A stretch of DNA of 64,000 nt from Clostridiales bacterium (GCA_022791685.1 JAAVZO010000034.1:415-64414); one strand, 5' to 3'; counted from the first letter of the stretch, positions 8,760-59,730 are shown. Numbers and translations are program-made. Notes: generated by a model from the letters alone, not told the origin.

Positions 8760-10853
8760 TTATATTACAAATGCGTCCTTGCGGGAGAGGTTAAGTCTGC
8801 CCTTTTCGTCAGTTCCGAGGAACTTTACACGCATTTCGTCGCCAACTGCACAAACGTCCTCGACCTTTTCAACGCGGCGATTCTCGAGCTTCGAGATGTG
8901 GACGAGACCTTCCTTACCGGGAGCAATTTCAACAAATGCACCGATCGGAATGATTCTTGTGACCTTACCGTCGTATATTTCGCCGGGAATCGGCTCGAAT
9001 ACGATACCTTCGATGATCTTCTTTGCAGCGTATGCGGAATCGGAGTTTATCGCAGAGATGAAGATATCGCCAGTCTCCTCGATATCGATCTTCGCGCCGG
9101 TGTCAGCGGTGATCTTCTGGATCACCTTTCCGCCCGAACCGATAACTTCGCGAATCTTATCAACGTTGATCTTCATAGTCAGCATCTTAGGCGCGTACTT
9201 CGAAACCTCAGCGCGCGGCTTGTCGATAGCCTTCAGGATGATGTCGTCGATGATATAATCGCGTCCCTTATGGGTTACAGCGAGCGCTTCCTTGATGATT
9301 TCGGGAGTCAGACCGTCGATCTTCAGGTCCATCTGAATCGATGTGATACCCTTGTGAGTTCCGGCTACCTTGAAGTCCATGTCGCCGTAGAAGTCCTCGA
9401 GACCCTGAATATCGATCATGGTCGTCCAGCTGCCGTCCTCGGCGGTGATAAGTCCGCACGAGATACCAGCTACCGGTGCCTTGATCGGCACGCCAGCGTC
9501 CATAAGTGCGAGCGTCGAACCGCAGACTGAACCCTGAGAGGTAGAGCCGTTCGAGCTTACGACCTCAGAAACGAGACGAATCGCATACGGGAATTCCTCA
9601 ACCGACGGAAGTACCGGAACGAGCGAACGCTCAGCAAGCGCGCCGTGACCGATCTCACGTCTGCCCGCACCGCGGGAAGCCTTAGCTTCACCAGTCGAGT
9701 AGCCGGGCATATTATAATGGTGCATATAGCGCTTCGACTCTTCCTCGTCGATACCGTCGAGCATCTGCGCGTCGGATATCGGACCAAGTGTAGCGATAGT
9801 CATGACCTGGGTCTGACCGCGGGTGAAGAGTCCGCTTCCGTGAGTTCTCGGAAGGATACCAACCTCAGCTGCGAGCGGGCGGATCTGGTCCATGCGGCGG
9901 CCGTCAACGCGCTTGTGGTCGTTGAGCAGCCAGCGGCGTACTATCTTCTTCTGGATCTTGTAAATGAGCTCGGGCATGATGACCTCAAGGTCGGGGTACT
10001 CTTCGCTGAACTTCTCGACGATCGCGTCCTGAACCGGGACCATACGCTCGTCGCGTACATTCTTGTCGTCGGTGTCGAGTGCGAACATTACGTCCTTTTC
10101 GCAGAAGTCGAAAATCTTATCGAACATATCGTGGTCGAGCTCGCCGGAAGCGTACTCGAACTTCGGCTTGCCGATCTCAGCGACAATCGAATTTATGAAT
10201 ACAAGCAGCTGCTTGATTTCCTCATGAGCGAGCATGATTGCGTTGAACATATCGTCATCGCTGACTTCGTTCGCGCCGGCCTCGATCATTACTACCTTCT
10301 CTGCCGTAGCTGCTACGGTGAGCTGAAGGTCGCTGACCTTGCGCTGCTCAGAAGTCGGATTAATGACCGGCTTACCGTCAACCATTCCAACAAATACGCC
10401 GCCTATCGGGCCGTTCCACGGAATATCCGAGATGGAAAGTGCGATCGACGCGCCGATCATCGCGGTGATCTCAGGCGAGCAGTCGTTGTCTACCGACATT
10501 ACAGTCAGCGACAGGTTGACATCGTTGCGCAGATCCTTCGGGAAAAGCGGACGAATCGGACGGTCGATAACGCGCGATGTGAGTATCGCCTTTTCGGAGG
10601 GCTTGCCCTCGCGCTTCAGGTAGCCGCCTGGGATCTTGCCGACAGCGTACATTTTTTCTTCAAAATCTACCGACAGCGGCAGAAAGTCGATGCCGTCGCG
10701 GGGCTTCGCGGACGCAGTCGCGCACGCTAAAATAACGGTGTCGCCGTAACGGACGAGCGCCGAGCCGTTCGCAAGTCCTGCGAGCTTTCCAGTCTCGACG
10801 ACCAGTTCACGTCCTGCGAAAGTGTAATTAAATACCTTGTAATTTTCGAACAT
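8760..10853 (-). CDS. pnp: Polyribonucleotide nucleotidyltransferase (PNPase)
   Basis: Two RNase PH domains plus KH and S1 domains, ending ...GKVTRIIPIGAFVEI...SKL. The start was chosen at MFENYKVF (10853), which follows AAGGAGGA. Confidence 0.95.
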   Translation of the reverse strand: MFENYKVFNYTFAGRELVVETGKLAGLANGSALVRYGDTVILACATASAKPRDGIDFLPLSVDFEEKMYAVGKIPGGYLKREGKPSEKAILTSRVIDRPIRPLFPKDLRNDVNLSLTVMSVDNDCSPEITAMIGASIALSISDIPWNGPIGGVFVGMVDGKPVINPTSEQRKVSDLQLTVAATAEKVVMIEAGANEVSDDDMFNAIMLAHEEIKQLLVFINSIVAEIGKPKFEYASGELDHDMFDKIFDFCEKDVMFALDTDDKNVRDERMVPVQDAIVEKFSEEYPDLEVIMPELIYKIQKKIVRRWLLNDHKRVDGRRMDQIRPLAAEVGILPRTHGSGLFTRGQTQVMTIATLGPISDAQMLDGIDEEESKRYMHHYNMPGYSTGEAKASRGAGRREIGHGALAERSLVPVLPSVEEFPYAIRLVSEVVSSNGSTSQGSVCGSTLALMDAGVPIKAPVAGISCGLITAEDGSWTTMIDIQGLEDFYGDMDFKVAGTHKGITSIQMDLKIDGLTPEIIKEALAVTHKGRDYIIDDIILKAIDKPRAEVSKYAPKMLTMKINVDKIREVIGSGGKVIQKITADTGAKIDIEETGDIFISAINSDSAYAAKKIIEGIVFEPIPGEIYDGKVTRIIPIGAFVEIAPGKEGLVHISKLENRRVEKVEDVCAVGDEMRVKFLGTDEKGRLNLSRKDAFVI

Positions 10854-10909
10854 TTCGTTCCTCCTTGTTTTTGTCGGAAGAAACGCGAAATCCGTGTGGT
10901 TTAGCACTT

Positions 10910-32442: not shown

Positions 32443-32451
32443 TGTTATAAT
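32443..32451 (+). promoter_or_regulatory. Extended -10 promoter element
   Basis: TGtTATAAT with no good -35. It would give a leader of about 200 nt before the ATG at 32666. Confidence 0.4.
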
Positions 32452-32665
32452 ATAGAGAAGTGAATTTATATAAACATAGTAACTATATAAACAAATTCTC
32501 CGCAAGACAACTAACTCAGGAGGAAAGTCTGAAAATAAATTTTCAGACTCACCTTTTGTGGCTTTATCGTGGTCAATGACCACGATTTGGCTGCGCAATA
32601 CGGGCTATGCCCGTAATACAAGCCCCAAGAAGGAAAGAAAGGAAGCTTTCGCTGCGGCGAAAGCT

Positions 32666-33958
32666 ATGGTCATAGAAATGCAGCGCCAGCTCTCCGGACC
32701 GGATAATAATAAGTACTACGAAAACGTAGCCAAGCACTTCCGGCGTGCCAAATATTTTACCATTATTTTGCTCATAGCCTTTCTGCTCACGTCGATCACC
32801 TTCAACCGCAGCGAGATAACTATCGAGAATTTACAATATCTAATGAAGTTCATAAGCTTCACAAACACCGAAACTTCGATCACTGCTACAAAGATAAACT
32901 ACTCATCGAGCGACAACACCCGCCTGTCGCTGTTCATCGGCGATCTGTGCTACCTATCGCCGAACGGGTACGCGCTCTACGACTCGCGCGGCAACACCAT
33001 CATGACCGACTCGGTCAAGTACACCTACCCGATACTCAAAACAAGCGCAAAGTTCGCACTCTGCCTTGACCTCGGCGGCAACTCGTACTCGATATTCAAC
33101 ACCTTCGCACGTCTGCACTCCGAAACGCTCGACTACCCCATCACCGGTGGTGACATCGCCGACTCGGGCGCGTTTGTTATCGCGACCTCGACCCGCGAAT
33201 ACCGCACCGCCGTGCAGCTCTACGACTCCGACTTTAACCTCATCAGCCGTATCCTGCGCGAGAGCTACCTCGCCGACGTTAAGTACAAGTCCGACGGCTC
33301 GGAGGTCGCTATCATGACCTTCACCAGCCGCGACGGCAGCTTCGTTTCAACGCTCGACCTCGTCAAGCCCGGCAGCGACAGCGTGCGTAAGTCGGCTAAA
33401 ATTAGCGGGCTCGCGTACTCGCTCTACTACACCGGAAGCGGCGTGACCGTCATCACCGATTCGGGGCTCTTGTTCTACAACGCCGACCTTGACCTCGTGC
33501 GCGCAGTAAGCTTCCCTTCCTCGCTCGTCATGGCGGACTGCTCGGATAAGTACCTCACCTGTGTATATGCGAGCGGCATCCTCGGCAACAGCTACCGCGT
33601 CGTCGTGTACGACATGACCGGACGCGCGACCTGCGAGATCGAGCTCGACGGCAAGCTTGCGGCAGTTTCACACGACGAGTCGGGCGACTATATTTTCATA
33701 CTCGCCAACAATCGTGTTACGCGTCTAAACCTCGTCAACCGCAGAATTGGCGAAATGCTCGTCGAATCGGGCGGATTTGACATACTCCCGCTTGACAGCA
33801 ATTCCTTCCTGCTCGCGATGAACAACTACGCGCTGACCTGTGAAACGAGCAGTTGGGCAGAACGGTACATCGACCGTGATGCCGTCGAAAACGGCAATAA
33901 TTCCGTTGAAAGCGGAAATGCTGTTGATAGTAATAATGCTGGATCAGCGGAACAATAG
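32666..33958 (+). CDS. DUF5711-like membrane-anchored protein
   Basis: Short cytoplasmic N-terminus, one TM (YFTIILLIAFLLTSITF) and a large repeat-like extracytoplasmic domain. This family often sits next to cvpA. The start is uncertain (GTG 32558, ATG 32576 or ATG 32666). Confidence 0.55.
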   Translation: MVIEMQRQLSGPDNNKYYENVAKHFRRAKYFTIILLIAFLLTSITFNRSEITIENLQYLMKFISFTNTETSITATKINYSSSDNTRLSLFIGDLCYLSPNGYALYDSRGNTIMTDSVKYTYPILKTSAKFALCLDLGGNSYSIFNTFARLHSETLDYPITGGDIADSGAFVIATSTREYRTAVQLYDSDFNLISRILRESYLADVKYKSDGSEVAIMTFTSRDGSFVSTLDLVKPGSDSVRKSAKISGLAYSLYYTGSGVTVITDSGLLFYNADLDLVRAVSFPSSLVMADCSDKYLTCVYASGILGNSYRVVVYDMTGRATCEIELDGKLAAVSHDESGDYIFILANNRVTRLNLVNRRIGEMLVESGGFDILPLDSNSFLLAMNNYALTCETSSWAERYIDRDAVENGNNSVESGNAVDSNNAGSAEQ

Positions 33959-33969
33959 AAAGGCAGCAT

Positions 33970-34686
33970 ATGAGTTTAATCATTGATATTATAATAATCC
34001 TCGCCGCAGTATCTGCGATATATCTCGGTATAATGCGCGGATTCGTGAAGTCGATAATGAGCTTTCTGTCGCTGATACTGGCGATAGTAGCCACCGTCAT
34101 TTTTACCGCGCCAGTATCACAGATACTGAGCGAAAAATATATAGACAGCTGGGTGAACGACATCGTTAAGAGCTCGATAGTCGAAATAGTGTCCGCCGGC
34201 GAACAGCAGCTCGAGCTTTCTAAGATAATGACAGACAAACCGGAAGCGCTCGTGCTTGTTGCGGCGCGGTTCGGCTGCGATATCGAGAAAATCGACGAGT
34301 ACTACAACGACGCGCTCGCCGGAAAAACCGACAGCGACGCAATAAATGAGCTCGCCGGATACATCGCCTCGCCGACCGCTGAAACGATAAGCAATGTGGT
34401 CGCAGCAATACTTGTATTCATCGCCGCGCTTATCGCGCTGAATCTCATAACGTTCATCCTCGACCTGATATGCCGCCTTCCGGTGCTGAATACGCTGAAC
34501 ACGCTGCTCGGTATGATATTCGGAATCGCGAGCGCGCTCTTGTCGGCATGGGTGATATCGAACATCGCAGTCGGACTTATCCGCGCGCTGTCAGCGATAA
34601 ACACCGGCGTATTCAACGACACTGTTATCTCAAGCTCAATTATCCTACGCTTCTTCTACAACAGCGGCGTGCTGCTGTTTAAGTAA
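33970..34686 (+). CDS. cvpA: CvpA-family membrane protein
   Basis: MSLIIDIIIILAAVSAIYLGIMRGFVKSIMSFLSLILAIV is the typical CvpA N-terminus. Four TM helices. Confidence 0.75.
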   Translation: MSLIIDIIIILAAVSAIYLGIMRGFVKSIMSFLSLILAIVATVIFTAPVSQILSEKYIDSWVNDIVKSSIVEIVSAGEQQLELSKIMTDKPEALVLVAARFGCDIEKIDEYYNDALAGKTDSDAINELAGYIASPTAETISNVVAAILVFIAALIALNLITFILDLICRLPVLNTLNTLLGMIFGIASALLSAWVISNIAVGLIRALSAINTGVFNDTVISSSIILRFFYNSGVLLFK

Positions 34687-34726
34687 TACCAAATAAAAGC
34701 AAACAACTAAGGAGTAAATATAAAAT

Positions 34727-37054
<2,328 letters not shown>

Positions 37055-37075
37055 TGAAGCTATTGTAAAATAATC

Positions 37076-39856
37076 ATGAACGAAACCTGGTACGATAAAT
37101 CAATCGAGCAGCTGGAGAAGCGCTTCTCTACCGACCGCGGCGTGGGGCTCAAACGTTCCGCCGCCGCGAAAACTCGCCGCGAGTACGGCGCGAATAACAT
37201 CTACCCAACGCCGACCAGCAGCTTCTTCGGCTACCGCTCGTACATTCTCCCCGATTTCGCCTCGCTGCTGCTGCTCGTAGTGGCAGCTGTAGCTGCAATT
37301 TTCGAGGTTCCGGTCGCCGCCGGAGCCATCGTCCTCATGCTGATTATCAACTACATTGCAGCGGTATTTACATTTGTCAAGGCGCAGCGTGTGCTTGAGG
37401 GCATGGCTGCCTACTCGCTTCCGACCGCGAAGGTCATGCGCGACGGCAAGCTGTCGCTCGTCGACATGCGCTCGCTCGTCCCGGGCGACGTGATATTCCT
37501 GTCCGCCGGCGACATCGTGCCCGCAGACTGCCGGATCTTCGCCGCCGAAAATTTCTTTGTAAACGAAGCGATTCTGACTGGCGTGCAGACTTCGGTGCGA
37601 AAGGACGCGAATTTTTCGTATTTTGCGCCCGGACTCGCACCCGAACGGCAGTTGAACATGGCATTCGCGGCTACGATAGTGACCGCCGGAAATGCGCGCT
37701 GCATCGTCGCCGCGACCGGAGACGGAGCGCTTGCCGCGTCGCTTGGCAAGACAAAACCGATAGTTACGCACGAAAATCTCCATGTTTTAACAAAACTGAA
37801 AAAATACTGCTCTATTTGGAGCATGACCATGCTCGCGATAATTTTCGCAGTAACTATAGCTGACTTGTTTATCGGCTACGGCGACAACGGTGTGTTCGAT
37901 GTATTTCTAACCGGAATTTCACTCGCCGCCGCATCGATGTCCGAGTTGTTCATGGCGTTCGGCTACATAATAATCGGCTGCGGAATCTTCAACGCAATGA
38001 AGCGTCGCCGCGACATAAACGTCGGTGCGCTTATCAAAAATGCCGAAAAATTGGAGCAATTGAAGCAACTTGATGTGCTTATTGTCCCAAAAGACGGCAT
38101 GATTACCCAGTCGCACGCCTTTGCTGACAAAATCTACCTGCCGCGCAAATTGTACAGTGCGACTGACATCGACCGCGTCGACAAGCTGACGCAGATCGTG
38201 CTTCGCGCTGTAATTTCGACCGGGATCTACTCATCGGGACTCGCAAGCCTCAACTCGAGCTCGCGGCGAATCACGCCTGAAGAGGAATCCATCATCAACC
38301 TCGCGTCCGAGCTGAAGCTCTACAATGCTAATATCGACCGCGCGTACCCGATAATCGAGCACAAATCCGCTGGCGGCGCGTCGAAATTCGACACTACCCT
38401 GACCCTCGACCCCGACCGTCACTACTTTGCAGTCTGCCGCGGAGGTGCGGAAGAAATATTAAATTCTTGTGAATATTTCATTGAAAATAGAAGAACATTT
38501 CATATGTCGACCGACGACCGACTCGCGTTCCTTGGCGCGGCGGAGAGTCTGACGAAGAACTCGTACAAGGTCGTCGCGGTCGCGTCCGGTACAACTGGTT
38601 ACAATAATCTACAGCGAATCGGAGCAATTCAGAGCGACCTCGTGTTCGAAGGGCTCATCGCCATCCGCGAGCCGCTGCAATCTGGCGTTGCGCAGACTAT
38701 CGAACGTTGTAGAGCCGCCGGAATCCGCGTTATTATGACGACCGAACGCTACACCGAGAGCGACAAATATCTCGCGATTTCGATCGGAATAATCAAAAAT
38801 GAGCGCGAAATTCTGACCGAAAACCGCTTGCTCGCGATGAATCGCGACATGCTTCGCACAAATCTATCATTATATAATATGTACTGTGGCATTCCGGCAG
38901 CGCGGCTCGCTGAGCTCGTCGCAATGCTGCGTGAGGACGGACACCACGTCGGGTTGCTCGCAGGCGGAATCAACGGCGCGCTGCTGCTGAGGCAAGCGGA
39001 CGTTGGATTCGCGCAGAGTGTGACAATTTCACCGAAAGCGTCGCACCACGGAATCGACATTCGCAGCCGCCAGACTCCCGCATACTCGCGAATCGCGAAC
39101 CCAAACGGAAAGACTTTCGATTCGGAGGCTCTGAAATTCATCTCGGACGTAGTTGTTTCCGACGCGGACGAGCATGGCGACGGCGGAATTGCAGCAGTCG
39201 TATCAGCGCTGGAATACTCGCGGTCGATCTATAAAAATCTGCTGCGCATCGTTCGCTATCTCGTCACTGTGCAATTTGCACGAATTTTTCTGATACTTGG
39301 CGCAAATTTCGCAGGAGTAAGCGCATTATCTCCCGAACAACTAATATTCGGTGGACTGATTTTCGATTTTGCTGCGGTGATTTCATCTGCATTTGCGAAG
39401 CCGCCGCACGACGCTCTGACTATGCGTGATGACGCTGAACAAGCGCTCGACCACGTCGTAATAACTAACTTACGTCCGATTTTGTACGCGCTGTTCGAAG
39501 CAGTTATGCTGCTTTCGATTGATCCGCTGCTGACGTACCTCAATATTCCGCTTGGCGCAGAAGAATATTCATCGCTTATCTTTATTTCATTCACACTATT
39601 CCAGCTCATGACATTGACTGAACTTGGAAGCGACCGCAGCTTGTTAGCGGCAAATATGCGTGTAAATACGATATATGCGCTGCTCGTCGTCGGACTTGTC
39701 GGATTTATCGCTGCAGGAATACTCATCCCGAGTTTTGGTGCAATTTTCGGAATTACCGCGCTGTCACCGCTTGCGATAGGCATATGCGCTATAATGACGT
39801 TGATGACGTTCGCTCTGCACGAAATATACAAGCTTATAGTTGCAAGAAAGAAATAA
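37076..39856 (+). CDS. P-type ATPase homologue with degenerate catalytic motifs (pseudo-enzyme candidate)
   Basis: 926 aa with overall P2-type cation ATPase architecture (N-terminal Cation_ATPase_N-like WYDKSIEQLEKRF, VPADCRI, 8-10 TM). TGES reads TGVQ (37577-37588), PEGLP reads MSELF, DKTGT reads PKDGM (Pro338, 38087-38089), TGD reads TER (38741-38749) and GDGVND reads AGGING (38960-38977). Confidence 0.8.
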   Translation: MNETWYDKSIEQLEKRFSTDRGVGLKRSAAAKTRREYGANNIYPTPTSSFFGYRSYILPDFASLLLLVVAAVAAIFEVPVAAGAIVLMLIINYIAAVFTFVKAQRVLEGMAAYSLPTAKVMRDGKLSLVDMRSLVPGDVIFLSAGDIVPADCRIFAAENFFVNEAILTGVQTSVRKDANFSYFAPGLAPERQLNMAFAATIVTAGNARCIVAATGDGALAASLGKTKPIVTHENLHVLTKLKKYCSIWSMTMLAIIFAVTIADLFIGYGDNGVFDVFLTGISLAAASMSELFMAFGYIIIGCGIFNAMKRRRDINVGALIKNAEKLEQLKQLDVLIVPKDGMITQSHAFADKIYLPRKLYSATDIDRVDKLTQIVLRAVISTGIYSSGLASLNSSSRRITPEEESIINLASELKLYNANIDRAYPIIEHKSAGGASKFDTTLTLDPDRHYFAVCRGGAEEILNSCEYFIENRRTFHMSTDDRLAFLGAAESLTKNSYKVVAVASGTTGYNNLQRIGAIQSDLVFEGLIAIREPLQSGVAQTIERCRAAGIRVIMTTERYTESDKYLAISIGIIKNEREILTENRLLAMNRDMLRTNLSLYNMYCGIPAARLAELVAMLREDGHHVGLLAGGINGALLLRQADVGFAQSVTISPKASHHGIDIRSRQTPAYSRIANPNGKTFDSEALKFISDVVVSDADEHGDGGIAAVVSALEYSRSIYKNLLRIVRYLVTVQFARIFLILGANFAGVSALSPEQLIFGGLIFDFAAVISSAFAKPPHDALTMRDDAEQALDHVVITNLRPILYALFEAVMLLSIDPLLTYLNIPLGAEEYSSLIFISFTLFQLMTLTELGSDRSLLAANMRVNTIYALLVVGLVGFIAAGILIPSFGAIFGITALSPLAIGICAIMTLMTFALHEIYKLIVARKK

Positions 39857-39890: not shown

Positions 39891-40139
39891 ATGGATTTTA
39901 TATTCGAATTTATTGCAACGTTGGCATTAGAACTCGGCATTGAAATAGCAGGAGATTCGAAAGTGAGTCGGTGGATCAAGTATCCATTATTTGGTATTTT
40001 GTGCTTAGCTTTCTTATTTGTGCTTGCTCTAACATTGTATCAGAAAAACATACCAGCTGCGATTGCGCTGTGTGTGATGATAGTTGTTGGAATCTTCTTA
40101 GCTTTTATCGCCAAAAATGCAAAGGCAAGGAAGCGTTAA
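39891..40139 (+). CDS. Small membrane protein (82 aa, 2-3 TM)
   Basis: Hydrophobic ORF with RBS GGGAG and a basic C-terminal tail (KNAKARKR). Confidence 0.5.
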   Translation: MDFIFEFIATLALELGIEIAGDSKVSRWIKYPLFGILCLAFLFVLALTLYQKNIPAAIALCVMIVVGIFLAFIAKNAKARKR

Positions 40140-57279: not shown

Positions 57280-59730
57280 ATGCGTAATAAGATTTTATCT
57301 ATATTACTTATATCATTAATAATTATTTCTCTGTCATATGTCGCATCATGCGATAAAAGTAACGATAGCAACATTGAAAGCACAACAAAAAAAGACTATA
57401 GTAAATCACCCGAAAAGATGATTTACAAGTTCGATTACATAAATCCACCTCCAGGTTTTTCCGATTATTTTTCCAACAACTATTTTTCAACAATTGAATA
57501 TGCAATCGCAGTCAACGATATGATACCAATAAAAGATGGCATACAATATTACACATATAATATTGAAAATAACGAGTATGATATTGTGCATTTCAACAAT
57601 GAAATACAATTCAATGAATACTACTATTATTATTCTTTCGATAACTATGTTGAAACAGTCGATGGAAGCTATTATGCGTTAGGATTTGAAACAACCAAAA
57701 GTAATGACATACCCAATAATAACCGCGAAGTCTTTATAAAATATGACCCAGATGGAAATATAGCGTATGCAGTTCCAATTGCGGATATTGATTCACGAAT
57801 AAATGTATACTCTACTAAGTTCTGCGTCGATGCCAACAACAATATTTATTTCTTTTTGGGGCACAATTATGATGAGCTTATTATCGTGTATTCTGACAGT
57901 CTCGAATATTTGTTCTCAATAAATAATTTCTTAGGTAAATCAAGATTTAATCAAACTGATATTTTTTCGGACAGCGAGCAAACTGTCTACTTATGTTATA
58001 CAGAACGAACCACTCCATTAGACAGTGAAATACGATTTCTCCGCATAGATCCAGAAATAAAAGGGCTTCGTGACTACAGCGAAATGCCGCAGCTTTTATG
58101 CCGAATTGCTCGTGATGCCAACACGCATATGACCAAGGGAACGCTCGGCGGCGGCGAGTATGATGCATACGCATATGACTACACCGGCGTTTATGGCTAT
58201 AAGCTGGGTGAAGATCCAGTTCAGTTGTTCGATTGGCTGCAATTCGGACTTGACATCAACATGGTGAAGGATATCTACATCCACTCGGAAGACGAAATTT
58301 TCGTAGTTCTCTACCGCTCGGAAGATGAATATGACAGCTATTTTGACCGGATGTACGATTATGGCAGAATCCACAAAGTGCCGATTTCGTCGGTTTACGG
58401 CGAAGGCGCGACCGAAGAGATTACTTTGACACTTGCGATTGATGAAGAAAACAACGCAAGCTATGCAAAAATACTTGAATGTGCTGCGTCGTTTGTGCGA
58501 AATTCTGGATGCCTTGTGGAAATTGTGTCATACAGCGACACTGAGGGCGGATTCAGCGCCAATCAAAAGCTGGTGCGCGACATAGCTGCGGGAAATGTTC
58601 CGGATGTTGTGGCGTTCGGCGGCGATATCACCTATGAGCAATTGGCTAATATAGGTGTATTCGTCGATTTGTACAGTCAAATTGACAACGACAGCGAAAT
58701 AAATCGCAGCGATTTTCTTCCCTGTGTACTAAAGCCATTCGAAAACAAAAAAGGCGAACTATTGCAGTTGATAAACGAATTCTCTATATCTACGATGATA
58801 ACAAAAAAATCAGTATCAGATGAGTATTTTAATGGCAGCTCGCCAACTTGTGAACAATTACTGGCACTTAATAGTACGCTTAAAAATAACCAATATTTGT
58901 TCGATGTGCGCAATATTTCGTCGATATCTGAGGCTTCAAATAAACTATTTAGTGATATTTTGCCGCACATGCTCGGTAATTTTATTGATTATGAGCAAAA
59001 GACTTGCAATTTCGATGGTTTAAAAGACCTTTTAAGATTATGCAAAGAATCAAAATTGAACGTGATAAATGGATTTAGCGATCCGAACAAAACAATGTCT
59101 GGCGATTTGAAAATATTGCAATCGACATACGCTAATGCAGCTTTGTATTTATATGACAGAAATATGTATTTCAACAGTAATGATATTAGCTATATTGGAT
59201 ATCCAAGTGTTTCTTATAGCAGTGCAAGCATTATACCAGCAAGCAGTTTTTCAATCACGAAACAGAGTAATAATCAAGAATTTGCGTGGAAACTTATCAG
59301 ACATTTCATTGCTATAAAGGAAAACAGCTTAAATAACAAACAAAATTATGGAACATTTTCATATTTTCCTTGTACATACCGCGGTATTGATATAGTTTTT
59401 GAAAACATCGGCAAATGTATAATTCAAATGGGAGGAGATTATTATCGCAATGCTGGAGATGCCGACGATTCATTTTCGATAATACTTTCATTTAACGAAA
59501 GCACTCCAGAATTTCGAGCACAAGTTGGAAATAATATTGTAGAAGTTAATGAATCAGACAAAACAGCATTGATAGAATTGTTTGAAAATATTAACACTGC
59601 ATACATTTCAGATACTATTATTTCGTCAATCATCATTGAAGAAGCATCATATTACTTCTCTGGAGTAAAGAATCTCGACGACACTATTAAAGTTATAACG
59701 AGCAGAGTTGAGGCAAAAGTATTTGAATAA
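57280..59730 (+). CDS. Large lipoprotein (816 aa) whose C-terminal half resembles an extracellular solute-binding protein
   Basis: Lipobox LSYVAS-C. The N-terminal roughly 370 aa are Tyr/Asn-rich. The C-terminal half has SBP-like stretches (ITLTLAIDEEN..., AAGNVPDVVAFGG). No permease or ATPase gene is adjacent. Confidence 0.5.
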   Translation: MRNKILSILLISLIIISLSYVASCDKSNDSNIESTTKKDYSKSPEKMIYKFDYINPPPGFSDYFSNNYFSTIEYAIAVNDMIPIKDGIQYYTYNIENNEYDIVHFNNEIQFNEYYYYYSFDNYVETVDGSYYALGFETTKSNDIPNNNREVFIKYDPDGNIAYAVPIADIDSRINVYSTKFCVDANNNIYFFLGHNYDELIIVYSDSLEYLFSINNFLGKSRFNQTDIFSDSEQTVYLCYTERTTPLDSEIRFLRIDPEIKGLRDYSEMPQLLCRIARDANTHMTKGTLGGGEYDAYAYDYTGVYGYKLGEDPVQLFDWLQFGLDINMVKDIYIHSEDEIFVVLYRSEDEYDSYFDRMYDYGRIHKVPISSVYGEGATEEITLTLAIDEENNASYAKILECAASFVRNSGCLVEIVSYSDTEGGFSANQKLVRDIAAGNVPDVVAFGGDITYEQLANIGVFVDLYSQIDNDSEINRSDFLPCVLKPFENKKGELLQLINEFSISTMITKKSVSDEYFNGSSPTCEQLLALNSTLKNNQYLFDVRNISSISEASNKLFSDILPHMLGNFIDYEQKTCNFDGLKDLLRLCKESKLNVINGFSDPNKTMSGDLKILQSTYANAALYLYDRNMYFNSNDISYIGYPSVSYSSASIIPASSFSITKQSNNQEFAWKLIRHFIAIKENSLNNKQNYGTFSYFPCTYRGIDIVFENIGKCIIQMGGDYYRNAGDADDSFSIILSFNESTPEFRAQVGNNIVEVNESDKTALIELFENINTAYISDTIISSIIIEEASYYFSGVKNLDDTIKVITSRVEAKVFE

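Follow-up and report, generated by a model that had tools for sequence, protein, structure and literature searches.

A maintained P2-type ATPase homologue with replaced catalytic motifs, encoded beside a ClpE-type unfoldase in a Clostridiales bacterium

The window analysed here, a stretch of 64,000 nucleotides from a Clostridiales bacterium (GCA_022791685.1 JAAVZO010000034.1:415-64414), carries on its + strand a cluster of four co-oriented genes (32558-39856), which encode, in this order, a DUF5711 protein, a CvpA family protein, a ClpE-type AAA+ unfoldase and a homologue of P2-type cation pumps. The genes are separated by gaps of 11, 40 and 21 nt. The last of them (37076-39856, +) is an intact open reading frame (ORF) of 926 codons plus stop, a frame of 2.8 kb, and its product is referred to below as the pseudo-pump. 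The assignment of this protein as a pseudo-P2-type ATPase draws on the ORF, on Pfam and NCBIfam models, on alignment to PDB sequences, on AlphaFold2 (AF2) modelling with Foldseek comparison, and on the ratio of nonsynonymous to synonymous substitution rates (dN/dS).

In the Pfam scan of the 926-residue protein, E1-E2_ATPase (92 bits), Cation_ATPase_N and Cation_ATPase_C all score above their cut-offs, while the HAD/Hydrolase model PF00702, which is matched by every working P-type ATPase, gave no match at E<=0.01. NCBIfam models of Ca2+, Mg2+, H+ and Na/K pumps cover most of the protein at no more than a quarter of their cut-offs. The top model, TIGR01522 (PMR1-type), reaches 171 bits against a cut-off of 798 and TIGR01116 (SERCA-type) 158 bits against 703, which places the protein outside both equivalogs; TIGR01647 (P3A) reaches 137 bits against 615. 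A full-length phmmer alignment to the Listeria Ca2+-ATPase LMCA1 (6zhf; E 8e-42) fixes the columns of the family motifs. The AF2 model, computed from a 39-sequence family alignment, has a mean predicted local distance difference test (pLDDT) score of 84.2, a predicted template modelling (pTM) score of 0.79 and ten long membrane helices. The sole stretch with pLDDT below 50, residues 664-681, lies in a family-specific P-domain insertion of about 40 residues (648-690; 39017-39145, +) that follows ADVGFAQS and was delimited by the LMCA1 alignment and the family consensus. When searched against the PDB with Foldseek, the model matched only full-length P2/P3-type pumps (E ~1e-44), with template modelling scores of 0.75/0.77 to hSPCA1 CaE1 (8iwp), 0.73 to SERCA E1·Mg2+ with sarcolipin (4h1w) and 0.68/0.73 to LMCA1 E1-Ca, at 17-21% sequence identity. 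The model is closest to open E1 states, which is not taken as the conformation in vivo. The pseudo-pump thus retains the full pump architecture of A, N and P domains plus ten transmembrane (TM) helices. Homology and fold place it in the P-type ATPase superfamily, nearest to the P2A Ca2+ pumps, and every catalytic hallmark of membership is absent.

The replaced motifs, all on the + strand, follow the order of the domains. In the A domain, the dephosphorylation motif TGES reads TGVQ (37577-37588; LMCA1 alignment and script check). In TM4, MSELF (37937-37951) stands for (I)PEGL, which is IPEAL in LMCA1, and Glu290 (37943-37945) corresponds to SERCA E309, as given by alignments, column counts and script check. 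The phosphorylation loop reads LIVPKDGMIT instead of ICSDKTGTLT (38078-38107), with Pro338 (38087-38089) in the column of the phospho-Asp; in the phmmer alignment, LIVPKDGMITQ faces VICTDKTGTLTQ of LMCA1. In the N domain, RGGAE (38438-38452) replaces KGAPE (KGGPD in LMCA1), with Arg455 in place of K515 according to the LMCA1 alignment and column counts. By the same LMCA1 alignment, the P-domain hinge ITGDH has become TTERY (38738-38752), with TER (38741-38749) for TGD, and the Mg2+-site motif TGDGVND has become AGGING (38960-38977; LAGGINGA against MTGDGVNDA of LMCA1). The region of the conserved Lys (K684) reads IPAARLA and contains no lysine. A regular-expression search of the whole 926-residue protein returned no DKTG, GDGxND or TGE[SN] string, and this search together with the hidden Markov model (HMM) alignment rules out that canonical motifs lie misplaced elsewhere in the protein. 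An earlier sequence-only reading of this DNA had described a full-length P2-type homologue, which the alignment to LMCA1 and Foldseek template modelling scores of up to 0.77 bear out. Its coordinates for TGVQ, Pro338, TER and AGGING proved exact in a script check, and the HMM alignment that it had proposed as a check, which could have refuted it by placing a DKTGT-type Asp and a GDGxND elsewhere, did not do so: the LMCA1 alignment puts the replaced motifs where the canonical ones belong. For the structural comparison with SERCA or LMCA1 that it had suggested, Foldseek gave the scores stated above.

The window protein is a member of a large family with the same losses. A word-indexed protein search returned 94 relatives at 76% down to 29% identity, none of which has a precomputed PF00702 match, and a drop in score from 399 to 231 bits separates the motif-less relatives from canonical pumps. 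DKTG and GDGxND are absent from all 95 proteins (the window protein and its 94 relatives), while the 25 next-best canonical matches all have both. An exhaustive profile search covered 1.84 billion representatives at 50% identity; among the 150 best matches, which were examined, at least 116 clusters lack DKTG and GDGxND, and the family is larger than this. Its members range from 76% to below 25% identity to the window pseudo-pump. In a rough neighbour-joining tree, 109 full-length motif-less representatives form one clade with 34 canonical pumps outside, and the median identity is 24% within this clade versus 45% within the canonical set. Judged from this tree, the dead-pump family is monophyletic, with a single origin and at least 109 full-length 50%-identity clusters.

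Selection on the family was estimated by the Nei-Gojobori method; dS is near saturation, so that the dN/dS values are overestimates if anything. The window pseudo-pump gene gave 0.09 when compared with a 77%-identical relative, and a closer pair (86% identical) gave 0.085. The overall range is 0.085-0.17, and single domains, N and P included, lie at 0.05-0.13. The adjacent clpE genes of the same genome pairs show 0.10-0.14, and the pseudo-pump genes equal them in constraint. These values, together with the conservation of the family as a whole, rule out a recent pseudogene. The family very probably consists of pseudoenzymes that are dead but selected, and the database labels of its genes, 'cation-transporting P-type ATPase' or 'Ca2+-transporting ATPase', are almost certainly wrong.

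Column counts across the family refer to 118 motif-less clusters at 50% identity, with some columns scored in 117 or 113 of them. The alignment shows Pro in the phospho-Asp column in 95 of the 95 nearer proteins, and in the 118 clusters this column holds P in 54, C in 11, L in 7, R in 6, S in 6 and H in 5, with Asp not conserved. The Glu column of TGES is equally variable (N 33, S 13, D 11, V 10 and others), and the columns of T353, T625, G626, D627, K684, D703, N706 and D707 are lost or unconserved; D703 is replaced by S, R, T or G. The R678 column is mostly Gly and the K515 column mostly Arg. In a deeper subfamily, the GDGxND position reads G(R/H)ELDE. Two columns in the canonical E-x-P-F-D-S-x-R-K stretch, the adenine-stacking Phe and the Lys that follows it, which we take by our own numbering to be SERCA F487 and K492, are unconserved in the family alignment, as is a neighbouring N-domain Arg column equated with R560. 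The core of the A domain is conserved with canonical pumps. According to these alignments, phosphoryl transfer, dephosphorylation and Mg2+ binding are lost in the family, and ATP binding is probably lost as well. With the phospho-Asp, the Mg2+ ligands, the hinge, the Lys, TGES and most residues of the ATP pocket gone, a Post-Albers phosphoenzyme cycle would no longer be possible.

The membrane ion site has been remodelled in a more uniform way. TM5 reads VQFAR (39269-39283, +), with Gln733 for N768 and Arg736 for E771, and TM6 reads GGLIFDF (39350-39370, +), where Gly760 replaces N796 and Asp764 is the counterpart of D800; both assignments come from alignments, column counts and a script check. 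The E771 column holds Arg or Lys in 116 of 117 family clusters versus Glu in 34 of 35 canonical pumps. The N796 column is Gly in 116/117 clusters, Asp is retained in the D800 column in 116/117, and Gln occupies the N768 column in 86. In TM4, the Glu of the E309 column is kept in 97 of 113 clusters, and the Pro in front of it is replaced, mostly by Ser. The resulting family signature, namely the absence of DKTG and GDGxND combined with Q-x-x-R in TM5, G-L-x-x-D in TM6 and (S/C/T)-E in TM4, is present in the window protein as Q733, R736, G760, D764 and S289-E290. Of the features of Ca2+ site II (E309, N796, D800 and PEGL), the protein keeps E290 and D764, and it has Gly760 and SELF in place of the others, with Arg736 in the E771 column. 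By these counts the transmembrane site is the most constrained part of the family. We infer that the positive charge of Arg736 would offset the Glu and Asp that remain, as an internal counter-charge that permanently fills the former cation site and makes it self-neutralised. This salt-bridged arrangement of E290, R736 and D764 derives from alignment columns and not from model coordinates.

The sequence-only reading had stated that every catalytic signature is replaced, which stands for the residues of phosphorylation, dephosphorylation, Mg2+ binding and nucleotide binding and goes too far for the ion site, where E290 and D764 are kept. It had asked whether the substitutions are conserved across a clade, which for the phospho-Asp holds in part: Pro is found in all 95 near proteins, and the wider family shows P, C, L, R, S or H. 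Its view of a maintained, non-catalytic pseudo-pump rather than decay is supported by the intact frame, by dN/dS of ~0.09 and by the motif-less clade, and neither canonical motifs in close relatives nor relaxed selection, which would have contradicted it, were found (95/95 near proteins without canonical motifs). It had noticed neither the conserved cluster with ClpE nor the remodelled ion site.

All sources of the family are metagenome-assembled genomes (MAGs) labelled Clostridia, Clostridiales, Oscillospiraceae or similar, and no cultured carrier occurred among the protein-search and genome matches. A typical cluster is also present at the loci L010, L012 and L024, in MAGs labelled Selenomonadaceae, Candidatus Colimorpha enterica (placed in Bacteroidales by NCBI taxonomy) and Lachnospiraceae; these odd labels are likely due to mis-binning or taxonomy problems. 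Several members carry C-terminal extensions of 150-350 residues past TM10 (P0199, P0207, P0209 and P0200, with 1118-1286 residues, and the proteins of loci L013, L015 and L019). A degenerate P2-type ATPase, P0295 (L094 679-3315), stands sister or basal to the whole dead-pump clade: it has kept the Asp (VDAEG), reads PKGLP, TGA and GIGVDD at other motifs, and its E771 and N796 columns already hold Lys and Gly. P0295 may resemble an evolutionary intermediate.

The pseudo-pump gene is part of a recurrent gene cluster. A clpE gene lies directly upstream of the motif-less pump in 29 of the 31 loci that have upstream sequence, and upstream of a canonical pump in none of 58 loci. The gap from the clpE stop to the pump start is at most 12 nt in 18 of 31 measured junctions, with overlaps of 4 or 1 nt in seven, and in the majority of the 31 the two codons overlap or touch. 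The order seen in the window recurs at loci whose pseudo-pumps are 64%, 42%, 35%, 32% and 29% identical to that of the window, in GTDB species representatives, and at loci reached independently via remote DUF5711 homologues (27-30% identity). The four-gene block is listed at L001, L003, L005, L008, L010-L025, L092 and L093, with the pump of L020 not beside clpE, and it persists over pseudo-pump identities from 76% to below 25%. Both flanks of the block vary: upstream lie PolA or an ECF transporter plus TruA, and downstream a GDSL lipase, UDG, ParA, lysozyme, CNNM, PFK or Bmp. The pairing of pseudo-pump and ClpE is strong, not obligate. The two genes are probably co-transcribed, and the tight junctions suggest translational coupling, which would lead to matched production of both proteins. 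A canonical pump at the position after clpE was considered as the ancestral state and rejected on the 0/58 count and because P0295 is not beside clpE.

Some loci depart from this arrangement. On the contig of the closest relative (L089 1583-3907), clpE is split into ORFs of 256 and 504 residues by a frameshift or an assembly error. At L095 and L096 (4453-13250), a pump-less cluster is followed by ParA and two large proteins (953 and at least 839 residues) that have no Pfam match; the 953-residue protein of L095 was tried as an ultra-diverged pseudo-pump and rejected, with an hhalign probability of 0.06. At L009, the genes in front of the pseudo-pump encode an ABC-2 permease and a PBP-like protein. 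At L020 (7327-9335), the pseudo-pump gene is truncated where the contig stops, and its start shares 4 nt with the stop of a gene for a small stand-alone HAD_2 hydrolase of the phosphatase family, a curious partner for a protein from which the HAD chemistry itself has disappeared.

The unfoldase gene (34727-37054, +) ends 21 nt 5' of the pseudo-pump gene, and its product of 775 residues was identified as a ClpE-type double-AAA+ unfoldase by Pfam, NCBIfam and PDB alignment. Among solved structures, it scores 657 bits with B. subtilis ClpC and 596 bits with ClpE 29hb. It has an N-terminal CxxC...CxxC zinc ribbon, each of its two AAA+ modules contains intact Walker A and B motifs, and its ClpP-docking loop reads AGF. 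The zinc ribbon, the Walker motifs and the ClpP loop are kept in 27 of 27 full-length ClpE copies. The ClpE neighbour is apparently competent. The Clp_N domain is absent from the window protein and from every homologue examined, and NCBIfam gave no ClpE-specific match, with scores below the ClpA and ClpB equivalog cut-offs. A charged linker of about 90 residues is probably disordered. The homologues carry only the database labels 'AAA domain-containing protein' or ClpC, and the close ones all come from MAGs.

The two genes further upstream encode membrane proteins, so that three of the four cluster products reside in the membrane and the fourth is a cytosolic unfoldase. The CvpA (Colicin_V production) family protein has 238 residues (33970-34686, +; Pfam) and is found at the corresponding place in related loci. 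The cluster opens with the gene (32558-33958, +) of the DUF5711 protein (Pfam; AF2 pLDDT 85.2), which is predicted with high confidence to be a type-II membrane protein: a single TM helix joins a short N-terminus in the cytoplasm to an extracytoplasmic β-propeller. A Foldseek search of this model against the PDB returned generic β-propellers only and no functional lead, and the literature on DUF5711 yielded nothing relevant. Just 3' of the pseudo-pump gene lies a hydrophobic ORF of 82 residues (39891-40139, +) with a Shine-Dalgarno-like GGGAGA in front and no Pfam match, the product of which may be a small membrane protein.

A scan for promoter and terminator consensus sequences did not rise above shuffled expectation. 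A possible extended -10 element, TGTTATAAT, lies 5' of the cluster (32443-32451, +); it was picked out by eye, is absent from the list of the consensus scan and carries low weight. For the CtsR operator (RGTCAAANANRGTCAAA), which would have linked the cluster with the class III heat-shock regulon, the window contains four matches with three mismatches against 5.2 expected, none of them convincing. Elsewhere in the window are genes for polynucleotide phosphorylase (8760-10907, -) and for an 816-residue protein with a weak solute-binding-protein domain (57280-59730, +).

The explanation that accounts best for all of these observations, and to which we give an even chance, is a selectively maintained, non-catalytic P2-type paralogue that works with the ClpE module as a membrane scaffold or transducer. 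The pseudo-pump would be a membrane-embedded scaffold or conformational transducer for an envelope-associated ClpE module, and its task would be to hold the ClpE(-ClpP) machine at the membrane or to regulate it there, not to transport ions. The gene neighbourhood points, tentatively and somewhat short of an even chance, to the pseudo-pump as a physical or functional partner of ClpE. In an extended form, which is unlikely though worth stating, the pseudo-pump, a β-subunit-like DUF5711 protein and CvpA would form a membrane complex with ClpE as its sole ATP consumer, and the P-type chassis would be repurposed as a conduit or anchor. Such an unfoldase-driven machine might extract or degrade envelope proteins, or couple an extracellular signal to ClpEP proteolysis.

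Several observations weigh against the partnership with ClpE, and most of them also favour an independent membrane function, for instance as a sensor of ions, pH or voltage or as a structural envelope protein, in which case the adjacency to clpE would merely mirror conservative gene order. All loci come from one Clostridia lineage, where RuvABC (RuvC and RuvAB), a methyltransferase, the ECF ABC transporter and TruA are syntenic too, even in distant members, so that the adjacency could partly be phylogenetic inertia. The well-sampled gut lineage of L095 and L096 has ClpE clusters of the order DUF5711, CvpA, a PgsA-like CDP-alcohol phosphatidyltransferase and ClpE without a pseudo-pump, and the pseudo-pumps of L009 and L020 lie away from ClpE. 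The clpE-pump junction exceeds 100 nt in 5 of 31 cases, and the window gene itself has no obvious Shine-Dalgarno sequence. An independent role nevertheless has to contend with a four-gene block that outlasts the rearrangement of both its flanks, with a clpE stop that meets or overlaps the pump start at most of the 31 junctions, and with the presence of the whole block even where DUF5711 homologues have fallen to 27-30% identity. It appears less likely than a link with ClpE.

Other explanations concern the protein itself. With ATP coupling gone, the acidic residues kept in TM4 (Glu) and TM6 (Asp) and the Arg gained in TM5 could form an uncoupled ion pathway, i.e. a passive channel or carrier for H+ or other cations, as the high conservation of the membrane site (D800 116/117, Arg or Lys 116/117, E309 97/113) and a resemblance of the Arg/Asp pairing to the Asp/Arg pair of plasma-membrane H+-ATPases (P3A) would suggest. 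The fixed Arg and the loss of N768, E771, N796 and T799 take away most cation ligands. A channel also needs no headpiece of about 500 residues, yet the A, N and P domains are full-length in more than 100 clusters, with dN/dS of 0.05-0.13. That this headpiece has stayed complete and under selection while its catalytic residues drifted argues against a leak channel, which we regard as distinctly unlikely, and favours a binding platform or a conformational role. Very improbable is an enzyme with non-canonical chemistry, in which the acidic residue at position +2 (PKDG) serves as nucleophile, or a nucleotide-binding sensor: D or E is found in the +2 column in 60 of 118 clusters, and E442 and the Arg at K515 are fairly conserved, but the +2 column is unconserved, with S, N, T and K also present, D703, N706, D707, T625, G626 and K684 are unconserved as well, and neither a conserved adenine-stacking Phe nor a HAD profile match is present. 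A recently inactivated pseudogene, or an artefact of alignment or assembly, has nothing but the missing motifs in its favour and is a practically negligible possibility, given the intact 2.8-kb frame, the dN/dS of ~0.09, motif-less orthologues in dozens of independent assemblies, a confidently folded model and an HMM alignment that fixes the motif columns. Maintenance as a scaffold or transducer linked to ClpE remains the reading we prefer.

In comparison with the P2A Ca2+-ATPases (LMCA1, SERCA and SPCA1/PMR1), the pseudo-pump shares full-length homology, domain order and the ten-helix fold (template modelling scores 0.68-0.77), together with the core of the A domain and the acidic residues of TM4 (Glu) and TM6 (Asp). 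It differs from them in lacking the phospho-Asp, TGES, TGD, K684 and GDGxND, in its degenerate ATP pocket, in the exchanges of E771 for Arg and N796 for Gly, and in the P-domain insertion of about 40 residues. Plasma-membrane P3A H+-ATPases (AHA2/Pma1) use a TM6 Asp with a TM5 Arg as built-in counter-ion, the Arg being one residue away in the alignment, and the pseudo-pump, where Asp in TM6 and Arg in TM5 likewise lie in or beside what was the cation site, may be analogous; unlike it, the P3A pumps are fully catalytic. The N-terminal halves of M. tuberculosis CtpH and CtpI are degenerate P-type ATPase modules fused to a functional C-terminal pump (PMC13460109). Like the pseudo-pump, these halves have the P-type ATPase fold and are presumably non-catalytic, whereas the pseudo-pump stands alone, forms a large clade of its own and shows linkage to clpE instead of an active pump. 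They were the only published modules found in a literature search for degenerate or pseudoenzyme P-type ATPases, and a search for the dead-pump family or for the combination of ClpE, CvpA and a P-type ATPase found no published description.

P-type ATPase folds encoded in an operon with other membrane proteins, or assembled with them, have parallels in KdpFABC and the Na,K-ATPase αβ complex. The topology of DUF5711, a large ectodomain joined by one TM helix to an N-terminus on the inside, is that of a β-subunit. KdpB and the Na,K α-subunit are catalytic, in contrast to the pseudo-pump, and no homology of the cluster proteins to KdpA, KdpC or β-subunits was found. We know of no precedent for an AAA+ unfoldase as the ATP-consuming partner of a P-type ATPase. 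What the cluster has in common with the ClpE/ClpC-ClpP systems is a genuine ClpE-type unfoldase that carries a ClpP-docking loop. Membrane tethering of an AAA+ protease is an established concept in FtsH, and the known ClpE/ClpC adaptors MecA and McsB are soluble; to our knowledge, neither ClpE nor ClpC has a described adaptor or anchor that is similar to a P-type ATPase.

P-type ATPases are defined by their aspartyl-phosphate cycle, and as far as we found, no stand-alone, maintained and catalytically dead lineage of them has been described so far. The existence of a large lineage that is old, as its median identity of 24% indicates, and under strong purifying selection shows that the scaffold of a pump can be retained for purposes other than pumping. 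The exchange of Glu771 for Arg and of Asn796 for Gly amounts to a natural experiment in which a pump carries its own counter-ion. If the complex with DUF5711, CvpA and ClpE were real, it would represent a new class of AAA+/P-type hybrid system. The near-constant pairing with ClpE and with two membrane proteins, DUF5711 and CvpA, leads to a concrete hypothesis, open to testing, about an uncharacterised envelope module of gut Clostridia that are abundant and uncultured.

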